Shown in pieces: positions 25,065 to 47,315 of a stretch of 64,000 bases of DNA. Source of the stretch: Octopus vulgaris (taxonomy: Eukaryota). The stretch covers positions 77,624,001 through 77,688,000 of the forward strand of contig OX597824.1 of NCBI GenBank assembly GCA_951406725.2. The letters are read 5' to 3'. The notes beneath the pieces were generated by a model that had not been told where the DNA came from, did no database searches, and saw nothing but the letters and a program-made list of their open reading frames with translations. Numbering within the stretch: position 1 is the stretch's first letter; the number at the start of each line of letters is the position of its first letter. The position numbers and the translations under genes were made by a program.

Positions 25065-26563
25065 TTCAAATTATTACATTATATAAAAGGGCTTAGTAAA
25101 ATAAATTACTTTGCCACATACTGAACTCATTAGAAATAGTAGCTAAAAAAAACTTTTTTAGAACTATTTCTAATACTTAAAGAAAATCTCTCTCAAATAG
25201 TGTTTGCTCAATTCAACTCACGAAAGTATGGGGGTAAAGACATTAAAAAATCAAATGCAAAGGTTATTTGAGAACGTACGTTTCAAGATTAGTCAACTCG
25301 ACATTTCTATCATCAGCTCAGAACTCCTTGGTTTGGATTTGAAAACACTGAAAGTGGGAGCATACCCTTTCGGCTTCTTATCGCTTCTGAAGATCTGCTC
25401 GAAACTAACAGTGCCAGCAAACCCAAAAAAATGCAAGCGAAGAATTTCTGCTCTCCCCTTTCCACCAGCGTGGGTTAAAATCAGTAAACATTATGCTTTT
25501 TCGGTAAAATCCGAAGCATTTAAATAGAGAGAGATGAATTATAATTTCAATTTTTTTTGGGTTTGCTGGCACTGTTAGTTTCGAGCAGATCTTCAGAAGC
25601 GATAAGAAGCCGAAAGGGTATGCTCCCACTTTCAGTGTTTTCAAATCCAAACCAAGGAGTTCTGAGCTGATGATAGAAATGTCGAGTTGACTAATCTTGA
25701 AACGTACGTTCTCAAATAACATTTGCATTTGATTTTTTAATGTCTTTACCCCCATACTTTCGTGAGTTGAATTGAGCAAACACTATTTGAGAGAGATTTT
25801 CTTTAAGTATTAGAAATAGTTCTAAAAAAGTTTTTTTTAGCTACTATTTCTAATGAGTTCAGTATGTGGCAAAGTAATTTATTTTACTAAGCCCTTTTAT
25901 ATAATGTAATAATTTGAATTCGCCTTAAATGGTCCCTTTACATACTGAATACTTGGTGAAATTGATTAATAATTAATTAATTTTACCCTCAATTGTTGAA
26001 ATTATAATTCATCTCTCTCTATTTAAATGCTTCGGATTTTACCGAAAAAGCATAGTGTTTACTGATTTTAACCCACGCTGGTGGAAAGGGGAGAGCAGAA
26101 ATTCTTCGCTTGCATTTTTTTGGGTTTGCTGGCACTGTTAGTTTCGAGCAGATCTTCAGAAGCGATAAGAAGCCGAAAGATTATGCTCCCACTTTCAGTG
26201 TTTTCAAATCCAAACCAAGGAGTTCTGAGCTGATGATAGAAATGTCGAGTTGACTAATCTTGAAACGTACGTTCTCAAATAACCTTTGCATTTGATTTTT
26301 TAATGTCTTTACCCCCATACTTTCGTGAGTTGAATTGAGCAAACACTATTTGAGAGAGATTTTCTTTAAGTATTAGAAATAGTTCTAAAAAAGTTTTTTT
26401 AGCTACTATTTCTAATGAGTTCAGTATGTGGCAAAGTAATTTATTTTACTAAGCCCTTTTATATAATGTAATAATTTTAATTCGCCTTAAATGGTCCCTT
26501 TACATACTGAATACTTGGTGAAATTGATTAATAATTAATTAATTTTACCCTCAATTGTTGAAA
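25065..26563. mobile_element. HHR-bearing 563-bp repeat: inverted copy (25065-25550, -) head-to-head with 1.8 tandem units (25551-26563, +), (TA)n on both sides
   Basis: Near-perfect inverted and direct repeats; HHR cores at 25667 and 26230 (+) and within 25269-25320 (-). Confidence 0.9.
25663..25714 (+). ncRNA. Type-I hammerhead ribozyme (copies at 26226-26277 +, 25269-25320 -, 35179-35230 +)
   Basis: tgag CTGATGA t aga-aat-gtc gagtt gac-taa-tct t GAAA cgtacg TT ctca; stem I tgag/ctca, palindrome AACGTACGTT; stem II imperfect. Confidence 0.75.
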
Positions 26564-26622
26564 TATATATATATATATATATATATATATATATATATAT
26601 ATATACATATATATATATATAC

Positions 26623-27625
26623 CCGTAAATATTAGAGAGTCAACTTTGAATATGTTAACTCTAGTGCTAGAAATAGGTCCGATCGGTAAAAGTCGCCGAC
26701 GATAAATCCACATAGAAATAGCACCACAATCAACGCTATGAAATTAAATTACTACTAAATAATGGATTAATGTTGTACAATTGTTTCTTCATTAACAAAA
26801 TGCAGATTATACTTACATAATTGTCTATGATTCATCAGCAACATTTGTCAATATAATTGATCAGACCCTTACAAGCGACGATTCTCATATGGTCCGATCA
26901 ATTACATTCTGTTGTAGTTACAAATTTCCCGCCGAGAGTAAATGCTAAGTGGAAGTGAATACCGCATGTAATATTTACTGCAGCATATCAAATCAATACA
27001 TTAAATAATGAGGGTGAATAAAATTATAGATATTAATTCAATAATACCCTTATTTTAACACCAAGCGACCTAGCACATGGTGTTAAAATAAGGGTATTAT
27101 TGAATTAATATCTATAATTTTATTCACCCTCATTATTTAATGTATTGATTTGATATGCTGCAGTAAATATTACATGCGGTATTCACTTCCACTTAGCATT
27201 TACTCTCGGCGGGAAATTTGTAACTACAACAGAATGTAATTGATCGGACCATATGAGAATCGTCGCTTGTAAGGGTCTGATCAATTATATTGACAAATGT
27301 TGCTGATGAATCATAGACAATTATGTAAGTATAATCTGCATTTTGTTAATGAAGAAACAATTGTACAACATTAATCCATTATTTAGTAGTAATTTAATTT
27401 CATAGCGTTGATTGTGGTGCTATTTCTATGTGGATTTATCGTCGGCGACTTTTACCGATCGGACCTATTTCTAGCACTAGAGTTAACATATTCAAAGTTG
27501 ACTCTCTAATATTTACGGATAAATATGAATTTGTGTCCCCGGTTTTTTGTGCTAGGTCGCTTGGTGTTAAAATAAGGGTATTATTGAATTAATATCTATA
27601 ATTTTATTCACCCTCATTATTTAAT
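26623..27625. mobile_element. HHR-bearing 484-bp repeat: 441-bp inverted arms with 14-nt spacer, plus ~64-bp terminal redundancy
   Basis: 26623-27063 is the reverse complement of 27078-27518; tggtgttaaaataaggg recurs at 27078 and 27562. Confidence 0.9.
27298..27370 (+). ncRNA. Type-I hammerhead ribozyme (mirror copy 26771-26843, -)
   Basis: tgttg CTGATGA a tcat-a-gacaa...ttgtt-a-atga a GAAA caattg TA caaca; 5-bp stem I, palindrome ACAATTGT, GUA triplet. Confidence 0.78.
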
Positions 27626-27649
27626 ATATATATATATATATATATATTG

Positions 27650-27880
27650 ATAGAAATGGCAAGACAACAAAACGATGAAAGAGACCTCGATATTATGTAA
27701 ATAGAGGAATTTATTTATAAAATAATATGTGACAATTATTCGGTAGCCATTATAAAACTCCGAGTTTCAGATGTCGGTGCGGAAACCCACGCCGGCATCT
27801 ATTCAGTTATCGGGCCATCGAAAAAAAAGCTCCGAAACTCGGAGTTTTATCATGGCTACCGAATAATTGTCACATATTAT
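27650..27880. mobile_element. HHR-family fold-back element related to 47097-47315
   Basis: Arms 27722-27768 and 27834-27880; minus-strand ataa CTGAATA gatgccgg..ccgacatc tGAAA ctcggag TT ttat (G8 mutated). Confidence 0.75.
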
Positions 27881-28364
27881 ATTTACATATATATATATAT
27901 ATTTATTTATTTATTTATTTATTTATTTATTGCTACCCCAATATATATGGTTTTGCAAATTTACAGCAACTTGTATACTCTAATTTATTTTTGCCTTCTT
28001 TGAATGTTGTAATATTTTCTACGTTAGAGCTTTTGATTGTTATTTCTGTCTTCCATATTTTGAGGCGGGGCGCGAACAGAATCGTTAGTACGTTAAACAA
28101 AATGCATAACGGCTTATCTTCAGGCTCGTCACGGTCTATGTTTAAATTTTCTACCGAAGTTTACTCTACCTTCTTTCTCTTTGGGGTCGATTAAATAAGA
28201 ACTGGTCGAACTCTGGGGTCAATTTCATCGACTAAACCATCACCCCTTAAGATTGTTAGTTTCTCGCCAAAATGTGAAATCATTATCTTCCCTACTTTAA
28301 TTTCATTTCTCTCAACTTTTCTCCCCGTTTGAAATGTTCCTTTAGTTATTTAATGTTCTGACAT

Positions 28365-28830
28365 ACTCTTTTACCCTTTTACTTGTTTCAGTCATTTGAC
28401 TGCGGCCATGCTGGAGCACCGCCTTTAGTCGAGCAAATCGACCCCGGGACTTATTCTTTGTAAGCCCAGTACTTATTCTATCAATGTCTTTTGCCGAACC
28501 GCTTAGTGACGGGGACGTAAACACACCAGCATCGGTTGTCAAGCAATGCTAGGGGGACAAACACAAACACACAAACATATATACACACACACTTATATAT
28601 ATATACATATATACGACAGGCTTCTTTCAGTTTATTTGTAAAATAATATGTGACAATTATTCGGTAGCCATGATAAAACTCCGAGTTTCATCTACCAAAT
28701 CCACTCACAAGGCATTGGTCGGCCCGGGGCTATAGTAGAAGACACTAGCGCAAGATGCCACGCAGTGGGACTGAACCCGGAACCATGTGGTTGGTTAGCA
28801 AGCTACTTACCACACAGCCACTCCTGCGCC
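28365..28830 (-). mobile_element. SINE family B carrying a 56-bp foreign insert (28634-28689)
   Basis: Family B match interrupted at cagttt. Confidence 0.85.
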
Positions 28831-45683: not shown

Positions 45684-46295
45684 ATTTACGTTTTTTGCTT
45701 TAAATGTATTTAATATTCTTTTCATAACGACTTGCCTCGCTTGTTCCTACATTTACTTCTCTACCAGCGCAAGTTCCTATTTCTTGAGCACTACGAAGTG
45801 CATACTATACTGAGAACACCTTTCTCTAATCTCTCTCTCTCTATCTATCTATCTATCTATCTATCTATCTATCTATCTATCTATCTATCTATCTATCTAT
45901 CTATCTATCTTTATCTATATACATACATACATACATACATACATACATACATACATACATATATATATAGGTATTTAAATAGACAAATGAATTATCTTAT
46001 TACGGATAATTCGAAAGATAACCGATACCTGGGTAGCAAACTCACAACAGAAAAAGCTGCATAATGGACTCCTTATTCATTCGGAATTAGGGATTTTGCA
46101 GACTTCGAAACATATGTCGAAAATAAAATAAAGGAATTTTGTTAAATCTTCGTTCAGCTCCATTCTTTCCTATACTTAATATATATATATATATATATAT
46201 ATATATATATATATATATATATATATATATATATATATATATATATATATATATATATATATATGCATATAAAATAAAAATTAAAAAAATATATA

Positions 46296-46512
46296 TGGCC
46301 TAGTGGTTAGGGCAGCGGACTTGCGGTCGGAGGATCGCGGTTTCGATTCCCAGACCGGGCGTTGTGTGTGTTTATTGAGCGAAAAACACCTAAAAGCTCC
46401 ACGAGGCTCCGGCAGGAGGTGGTGATCCCTGCTGTACTCAAAAGGCGGTGCTCCAGCATGGCCGCAGTCAAATGACTGAAACAAGTACAAAAAAAAAAAA
46501 AAAAAAAAAAAA
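46296..46512 (+). mobile_element. Chimeric SINE: family A tRNA head fused to family B tail plus poly(A)
   Basis: ..ccctgctgtactc|aaaaggcggtgctccagcatggccgcagtc..A24. Confidence 0.85.
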
Positions 46513-46626
46513 ATATGTAAGTTTAATTAAATGTTACAAACCTCCTGAAGGGATAATAAAATGCATTTAATATTCCACTGTAAGGTAATTGGATAAACCG
46601 GTGTTTATATTTTAAGAAAAAAGAGG

Positions 46627-46926
46627 TAATTAAATTGATTATTTATTAATTACAAAATTGGACATCATCTCCGACAGCTGTTTCGATTCAAGATTTTAGA
46701 AATTAATTAGTATAATTAAAAACATTTGAAAGTTAAATCTCATTGGAGGTGGAAAAAGATATACCCTTACATTTTCATATTGTTGTGTGCTGCGTGTAGG
46801 CAGCGCCCTACACCTCCGATGAGATTCAAAAATATTTTTAATTATAATTAATTTCGGAAGTCTTGAATAGAATCAGCTGTCAGAGATTATGACCAATTTT
46901 ATTAATAATAATTATCAATTTAATTA
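46627..46926. mobile_element. Diverged fold-back HHR element
   Basis: Arms 46627-46750 and 46812-46926; consensus CCGATGA gattcaa..ttgaatc GAAA cagctg TC; each arm has a different core lesion. Confidence 0.72.
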
Positions 46927-47096
46927 TCTCTATTTTCTTCTATCTATCTATCTATCTATCTATCTATCTATCTATCTATCTATCTATCTATCTATCTATC
47001 TATCTATCTATCTATCTATCTATCTGTCTGTCTATCTATTTGTCTGTCTATCTGTGTGTGTGTGTGTGTAGGTGTGTGTGTGTATGCATGTGTGCG

Positions 47097-47315
47097 TGTG
47101 ACAATTAGTTGGTTGTCATAATAAAACTGATAGTTACGGATGCCGGGGCTGAGGCCTGCTCCGGCATTTCATCTGTTGTTTGTCTTAATAACTGATGAGA
47201 TGCCGGAGCAGGCTTCAGCCCCGGCATCCGAAAATCTGAGTTTTATTACGACAACCAGCTAATTGTCACATATTTATAGATAAATTCCTCTGTTTACATA
47301 ACATCGAGATCTCAT
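47097..47315. mobile_element. Fold-back HHR element; intact core at 47186-47248 (+)
   Basis: taataa CTGATGA gatgccgg-agcaggcttcagcc-ccggcatc c GAAA atctgag TT ttatta; decayed mirror copy 47097-47177. Confidence 0.8.

Follow-up and report, generated by a model that had tools for sequence, protein, structure and literature searches.

What are the short hammerhead-bearing palindromes in the octopus genome, and why do they all point the same way? We analysed a 64-kb stretch of DNA from Octopus vulgaris (GenBank assembly GCA_951406725.2, contig OX597824.1, positions 77,624,001 to 77,688,000 of the forward strand; "the window" below means this whole stretch). It contains six fold-back insertions (L1 to L6), and one of them, L4, has a hammerhead ribozyme with an unusual layout. 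As sources, we used the window itself, contigs from four public runs, 120 loci from metagenomes, and the literature. On balance, we favor an account in which the fold-backs are 3' ends of Penelope-like elements (PLEs), produced by two primings of reverse transcription, and in which L4 carries a rewired hammerhead that is likely catalytic. The polarity of the fold-backs as such is already published, and our count adds nothing to the print record: head-to-head is the commonest arrangement of PLEs (Arkhipova et al. 2013, PMC3846280).

Six fold-back insertions with one polarity

A preliminary description of the window had listed six inverted pairs, all head-to-head, with the sense strand of the ribozyme on minus in the left arm and on plus in the right arm. 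Self-BLAST and pairwise alignment of the window recovered all six pairs, and this polarity holds at 6/6 loci (two-sided probability of 0.03 under 50:50). At L5 and in the left arm of L6, the ribozyme's sense was taken from alignments; our scan for type I hammerheads missed both. By that scan, type I cores are intact in both arms only at L1 and L2.

At L1, the left arm (25065-25550, minus strand) is an inverted 5'-truncated copy with a type I core at 25316. The right arm (25552-26563, plus strand) holds 1.8 tandem units of 563 nt, with type I cores at 25667 and 26230, and extends about 84 nt past the left arm's end. A (TA)n tract (26563-26621) is common to the right end of L1 and the left end of L2. 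The arms of L2 (26623-27077, minus, with a type I core at 26838; and 27078-27629, plus, with 1.14 units of 484 nt and a type I core at 27303) are identical across their common part (441/441), and the left arm is 14 nt longer at its 5' end while the right arm is 111 nt longer at its 3' end. At L3, the left arm (about 27650-27812, minus) has a near-intact type I motif at 27806, with one core mismatch, and a long tail that reaches the (TA)n at 27624-27647; the right arm (27826-27886, plus) has only the 3' half of the motif. The left arm of L4 (35528-35658, minus) is the element's 3' end from within stem I onward, and its right arm (35659-35855, plus) is a Naiad-type 3' end with a split hammerhead. 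Both arms of L5 (46614-46751, minus, and 46811-46939, plus; 81% alike) have decayed type I motifs, and the right arm terminates at (TCTA)n. At L6, the left arm (47097-47180, minus) is related to L3, has a decayed motif, and terminates at (TG)n, and the right arm (47187 to about 47328, plus) has a near-intact core at 47192 and a long tail; these arms are 88% alike.

The L1 family also has a separate copy within (TA)n (34792-35430, plus; core at 35183). About 9 nt at its 5' edge (34781-34791) match the element unit reversed, which may be a seventh inversion, of minimal size and again with this polarity. Within the 563-nt unit of L1, at about 25585-25625 and in the copies of this segment, there is a second, decayed hammerhead-like relic in the same sense as the intact one. 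More solo decayed type I hammerhead-like motifs lie at 17495-17576 (minus), at 50065-50141 (plus), and in a repeat at 23100, 32499, and 36005.

Among the 117 frames of at least 100 amino acids in the window, no open reading frame (ORF) for a reverse transcriptase (RT) with a GIY-YIG endonuclease lies at the six loci, so these are truncated or non-autonomous copies. The absence of an ORF that would tie any of the six to a parent element weighs against our account. Nevertheless, we have little doubt that all six structures derive from PLEs. The preliminary description had read them in this way, and the inverted arrangement matches published ones (PMC3846280; PMC8557442).

A split hammerhead motif at L4

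The ribozyme at L4 is not of type I: its cleavage site, GAAA, and CUGANGA come in a non-circular order. We scanned the window for all six block orders, with strict cores and with 100 shuffles as the null. The order cleavage site, GAAA, CUGANGA (S-G-C) was found at three unrelated repeats, with predicted cuts after 35680, 40063, and 50731. These matches have near-equal spacing and different stem sequences. The shuffled sequences gave 0.02 S-G-C matches per window, none of them equally strong. A relaxed rerun added a fourth match at 16599, which is a relative of the one at 50731 (null mean 0.23); another relaxed match, at 31344, was left out of the counts. Rfam had no matches to the window at the gathering threshold, and at E ≤ 10 on 24900-51000, the 150 matches listed of 181 were microRNA- or snoRNA-type matches to hairpins and microsatellites, with no hammerhead. 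(Free-energy folding is unable to display a pseudoknotted fold such as the one that we describe here.)

At L4, the split hammerhead lies in the right arm, on the plus strand, with its predicted cut after 35680, GAAA at 35695-35698, and the core at 35725-35731; the upstream strand of stem II was lost at the junction. A second family has the complete split form at 50710-50782 (plus), with the upstream stem II strand at 50710, the cut after 50731, GAAA at 50748, and the core at 50776. It has two other copies, both on the minus strand. One (16548-16616) has one core mismatch and a stem I that is altered on both sides and still paired; the other (57802-57851) is 5'-truncated 1 nt past the predicted cut (57851) and joined to (TA)n. 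A third family (40058-40115, plus) has S-G-C order, with the cut after 40063, GAAA at 40080, and the core at 40109.

The order cleavage site, GAAA, CUGANGA is known as type SGC (Eckert et al. 2023, PMC10085705). The split form resembles types SGC and CSG of that study in its non-circular order, a linker of about 3 nt, a helix that bridges stems I and II, and all core residues. But the published scheme assumes an uninterrupted block, and no stem II strand follows CUGANGA in the split form: for 4/4 copies in the window, there is no offset-free pairing directly after it. At 50710, the GGCTG before GAAA pairs with an upstream CAGCC. The linker from stem I to stem II is 3 nt at L4 and 5 nt at 50731. 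The rule for upstream stem II pairing was set down before the contigs of the L4 family were inspected, and in three of the four runs these contigs have an upstream GAAGG, which is the exact partner of the CCTTC before GAAA. We had considered L4 to be a classic type SGC, and dropped this once the upstream stem II partners emerged.

The contigs also bear on the extent of L4. The loose contig ends that have this upstream GAAGG lie at 35659 (7, 9, and 5 in three runs), with 12 more at 35674 in one run. In each of the four runs, the family terminates in (TA)n, and no joint that changes strand is listed. The listing has 14 variable positions, of which a single one, N7, lies in the core, where it is free to vary. 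Another idea, that the right arm of L4 begins at the cut and that its cleavage block comes from the left arm, was refuted, as the contigs place the start at 35659. A search of metagenomes with the L4 motif gave 0 matches.

Permuted hammerhead motifs in Naiads

According to Craig et al. 2021 (PMC8557442), Naiads have no canonical hammerheads, although the annotation in that paper flags 8 of them as "half core" (with 10 occurrences of "core"), and Naiad_Ovul is flagged "HHR_half_core" in its File S1. The 3' ends of Naiad_Ovul and Naiad_Obim have L4's block order, an identical stem I, and similar spacing, and L4 shares the (TA)n target of Naiads. L4 departs from the Octopus Naiad consensi in both stem II and stem III and lacks an ORF; it is therefore another family.

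We then judged by eye all 62 listed matches to CTGANGA in the Naiad consensi (unscripted; matches broken across lines were invisible). Permuted hammerheads fit in 15/54 consensi, with stems that vary in sequence yet remain paired. Six nematode records have a clean type CSG with stems of 4-9 bp, including Naiad-2_Nbra and Naiad-3_Nbra by their headers; the other four were assigned by their position in the file. (Type CSG in PMC10085705 rested on two sequences, and in the sections consulted none of its examples is tied to animals or PLEs.) Nine records, from six lineages in four phyla, have the split form with S-G-C order: one from the Clytia region, three near-identical ones from Acropora, Naiad-2_Movir, Naiad_Plae, Naiad_EuTe, Naiad_Obim, and Naiad_Ovul. 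The remaining matches are one partial motif (spider region) and others that lie inside ORFs or are unassignable by eye, including Naiad_Esco and several arthropod cores.

In all nine split forms, the best partner for the strand that precedes GAAA is a segment 5' of the cleavage site that begins with G, as in GACACC/GGTGTC (Octopus), GGCTCC/GGAGCC (Acropora), and GACGCC/GGCGTC (Eulimnadia). The G10.1-C11.1 pair is kept in every split-form lineage, all core residues as well as U16.1 and H17 are retained across four phyla, and an extra helix joins stems I and II at their far ends, as it does in the nematode form and in the published types (PMC10085705). The split order would run from the 5' strand of stem II through the bridging helix, a stem III strand, the cut site, and a stem I strand to a linker of 1-5 nt, and then through the 3' strand of stem II, GAAA, stem III, the bridging helix, and stem I to CUGANGA. 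Judged by sequence, this layout is the type-CSG fold of the nematodes with its chain opened anew between A9 and G10.1, given the upstream G-initiated partner of stem II, the G10.1-C11.1 pair, and the bridging helix. That the fold is conserved seems to us practically certain. A backbone that is opened inside the putative catalytic core suggests a layout beyond the six catalogued ones. We found no description of this order in the literature searched (subscription journals lay outside the coverage).

Two observations concern arthropod Naiads (PMC8557442 File S5). They have a run of C immediately 5' of the CUGANGA core, and in one of them stem I has 7 bp, stem III has 9 bp, and a hairpin forms locally before GAAA, which may be a third layout.

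5' ends of related copies

A motif taken from the Acropora Naiad consensus retrieved 120 metagenome loci. Given the motif's Acropora origin, these are presumably coral host DNA. The related copies look like separate events, because the flanks shown differ. Among the ungapped copies, 33 extend 5' past stem II, and these have 5-6 of 6 pairs in the upstream stem II, with the limit that stem II is only half free to vary here because the search motif contains its 3' strand. The bridging helix has 7-9 of 9 pairs in 33/33 copies, and immediately 3' of the core there are 1-3 of 4 pairs. As its first pair, stem I has C-G in 33 copies, T-A in 3, and a mismatch in 1. One locus (L052) has, as a Naiad should, an ORF for the C-terminus of an RT that ends 282 nt 5' of the motif. 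Its N-terminus is missing; the end of the ORF matches PF26215 clusters (Atlas score 0.97), and hmmscan gave no Pfam match for it.

To map the 5' ends, we kept 106 copies, after removing 12 that were cut by contig ends and 2 duplicates, and left 13/106 that end at the motif's edge out of the rate test. Counted from the motif's edge, with the predicted cut at 3 nt, 33 copies have their 5' ends within 1-5 nt, another 15 end at 6-52 nt, and 45 extend farther. This corresponds to 33 ends per 400 nt at risk around the predicted cut versus 15 per 2513 upstream, a rate ratio of 13.8 (p = 4e-18).

Is the split fold a catalytic hammerhead?

We consider it probable that the split fold is catalytic, with cleavage at the predicted site. 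The predicted ribozyme most likely cleaves the element's RNA, and this proposed cleavage would set the 5' ends of many copies. More broadly, it seems likely that many Naiads have an active hammerhead (type CSG in nematodes, and the split form in cnidarians, an acanthocephalan, a crustacean, and cephalopods) that would cut the RNA in vivo and fix the 5' ends of copies. These hammerheads would have been missed because they are non-circularly permuted.

Several results weigh against this reading. In the window, no upstream stem II partner was found at 40063, and the one at 16599 has just 3 bp. Positions 35721 and 35724 in stem I of the L4 family vary with no listed compensating change. L4 itself was copied from uncut RNA, as its right arm begins 21 nt upstream of the cut. 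By our incomplete search by eye, 39/54 Naiad consensi show no permuted fold. The core is mutated in 16/33 related copies, as expected of dead copies, so conservation within that family gives no support. And truncation 3' of the cut was not measurable, because the Acropora search motif begins 3 nt past the cut and includes the 3' strand of stem II.

An alternative is that the L4-type motif is an ordinary type SGC, with stem II after CUGANGA, or else a non-catalytic relic or protein-binding fold, in which case the pile-up of 5' ends would reflect a promoter or other processing. A stem II of 3-7 bp can indeed be drawn after the core at L4, 50776, 40109, and in Naiad_Plae if 1-2 nt are bulged. But after the core, the forms from Acropora, Octopus, Clytia, Morbakka, and Eulimnadia, as well as 32/33 related copies, have no pairing or 1-2 bp, as against 4-6 pairs, including G10.1-C11.1, with the upstream partner. 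In favor of this alternative, a PLE does not need cleavage by its hammerhead in vitro (PMC11167929); against it, every core residue, U16.1, and H17 are retained across four phyla. Overall, we think that these alternatives are rather unlikely, and we prefer a split hammerhead that probably cleaves.

How the fold-backs form

The preliminary description had noted microsatellites beside most of the insertions, and our counts agree: 10/12 outer ends lie at most 15 nt from a perfect microsatellite, as compared to 3.9% of random non-repeat positions (L3 left was scored at its extended end, and two tracts are common to neighbouring insertions). L5 left and L6 right are the ends that lack a nearby microsatellite, and the flanks of L5 and L6 are (TCTA)n and (TG)n, not (TA)n. 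The outer ends are unequal at L1, L2, L3, and L6, and end sites recur between copies: the end of L1's left arm coincides with the 3' end of the independent copy at 35430, and L3 and L6 share two end sites with their positions swapped. Different families also meet tail-to-tail across (TA)n (at 26563, 27624, and 35431), because both were inserted into one tract. No tail-to-tail palindrome of one family with a ribozyme was seen within the window, and four further inverted pairs have no ribozyme and no defined polarity.

We propose that the six structures are stump-sized insertions of PLE 3' ends, from five families, with one integration event each. A dimeric element enzyme would nick both strands of an AT-rich or microsatellite target, and reverse transcription would be primed from each 3'-OH, starting inside the element at one of a few favored sites. 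The two cDNAs would then be joined at their unfinished ends, bluntly or via available complementarity, which would force the 3' ends outward. Parts of this scheme have precedents. An inverted 5'-truncated copy that adjoins the 5' end, a one-sided tail, and targeting of (TA)n have been described (Craig et al. 2021, PMC8557442), and a PLE protein, a dimer by prediction, was shown in vitro to cut AT-rich sites on both strands and to extend both, starting internally at two sites (Frangieh et al. 2024, PMC11167929). The preliminary description had suggested that both cut ends prime cDNA synthesis because (TA)n is self-complementary. Two-end priming is plausible, as it fits these in vitro data and the structure of L2, but a requirement for self-complementarity is unsupported. 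It is also unnecessary, because 2/6 loci have flanks that are not self-complementary and because rotifer copies have the same fold-back structure with 8-10 bp target duplications (PMC3846280).

Neither arm of L2 is a plain copy of the other, as the left holds 14 nt extra (5') and the right 111 nt extra (3'). Together with the recurrent end of L1's left arm and the swapped ends of L3 and L6, this leads us to favor two primings, and we consider this mechanism somewhat better than an even bet for each locus. Two findings weigh against it: the junctions of L1 and L2 have only 0-1 nt of microhomology, and the junction of L4 is in exact register with the ribozyme's bridging helix (8/11 nt). Because that register places a hairpin of the element at the junction, it suits self-priming as well as annealing of two cDNAs. 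In self-priming, a single first strand (cDNA or antisense RNA) would fold back on its own end and be extended into the inverted arm. Self-priming on an antisense template was proposed for exactly this polarity (Arkhipova et al. 2013, PMC3846280), the hairpin at the L4 junction would be mirrored in the cDNA, and the left arm of L1 lies wholly inside the second unit of the right arm. On the other hand, L2 cannot be produced by copying one arm from the other, there is no hairpin at the L1 and L2 junctions, and the left arm of L1 stops at a recurrent start site and not at the right arm's end. We regard self-priming as possible but doubtful.

Two other explanations do without any such priming, and we consider both very improbable, the second slightly more so. 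Once inserted, the elements might have become palindromic through DNA template switching at (TA)n, which is self-complementary, without reverse transcription; in favor, the window has an inverted duplication around (TA)n that lacks a ribozyme (10351-10731) and a microsatellite block in inverted orientation (34357-34423). But template switching puts (TA)n at the center, whereas in all six loci (TA)n is outside and the center is element sequence. Also, the arms terminate at recurrent sites in the element, and L5 and L6 have no (TA)n flanks. The rotifer fold-backs, reported to have unique flanks and clean target duplications (PMC3846280), speak against it too. Or the near-perfect palindromes at L1 and L2 might be assembly artefacts from chimeric fold-back reads. 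The arms of L2 are identical over 441 nt, and no contig is listed across the L4 junction, but for a family with over 1000 contigs per run, unitigs are not expected to span one locus. The unequal, element-defined ends of the arms and the private differences between the L1 arms argue against an artefact, which also cannot give arms that are 81-88% alike at L3, L5, and L6. Among the 120 metagenome loci, none has an inverted ribozyme copy beside the motif, though short-read contigs break at palindromes; the five candidate inversions that we inspected there are other repeats or unclear.

Other inverted structures lie nearby. At 10351-10731, the inverted duplication (77 nt, 96% identity, (TA)n central) resembles a TA-mediated DNA template switch at the end of an element with terminal inverted repeats. 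Old inverted repeats without hammerhead motifs (68-79%) at 15830-16005, 49570-49804, and 52878-53222 are probably MITE-like. A composite of an L4-family 3' end, a complex microsatellite, and another repeat is present in two copies (32263-32644 and 35788-36149; 88%), and the microsatellite block at 34357-34423 is a third, inverted copy of the one in this composite, from local duplication or 3' transduction.

Comparison with known systems

In twin priming of the L1 retroelement (not our locus L1), a second priming on the other strand gives a 5' inversion, again with the 3' ends outward. The inversions of that retroelement are mostly non-overlapping, while both arms of the fold-backs here cover the same 3' segment.

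The six loci resemble EN+ PLE insertions (PMC3846280, PMC8557442) in their head-to-head polarity, with an inverted copy at all six; in partial tandems, at L1 and L2; in unequal ends; in AT-rich or microsatellite targets; and in a hammerhead near the 3' end (intact at L1 and L2, near-intact in L3 left and L6 right, decayed at L5, and permuted at L4). Unlike those insertions, they have no ORF, and the end offsets of about 55-111 nt at L1, L2, L3, and L6 exceed the published tail of 30-40 bp. Apart from L4, the loci have ordinary minimal type I hammerheads; such minimal motifs are known from PLE ends, with stem II having an unpaired base at its 5' end (PMC4209133). Locus L1 also resembles non-LTR retrozymes (10.64898/2026.07.22.740005) in that it is non-coding and tandemly repeated, and in that two consecutive units each hold a type I hammerhead (25667 and 26230; period 563). 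But locus L1 also has an inverted head, and the tandem part of L2 holds one motif only.

Other features of the window

SINE-like sequence forms a perfect 86-nt triple tandem and several 184-nt tandem arrays (38053-38312, 41387-42356, 53555-53927, and 59006-59378). A 514-codon frame for a LINE-type reverse transcriptase (3162-4706, plus; Pfam RVT_1, E = 5.6e-33) is not linked to PLEs. A 202-codon open frame (44367-44975, minus) has no Pfam match and is possibly a remnant of a retroelement's ORF1.

Implications for Naiads

The reported absence of hammerheads from Naiads had been used to suggest that the ribozyme of these elements is dispensable or parasitic. If our reading is correct, the permuted forms in five phyla would reverse this view, and the 5' ends at the predicted cut would give a handle on the ribozyme's role. 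Non-circular hammerheads would move from rare environmental RNAs to high-copy animal repeats. There would also be many natural examples of type CSG, along with a layout that the six-permutation scheme had ruled out by assumption.

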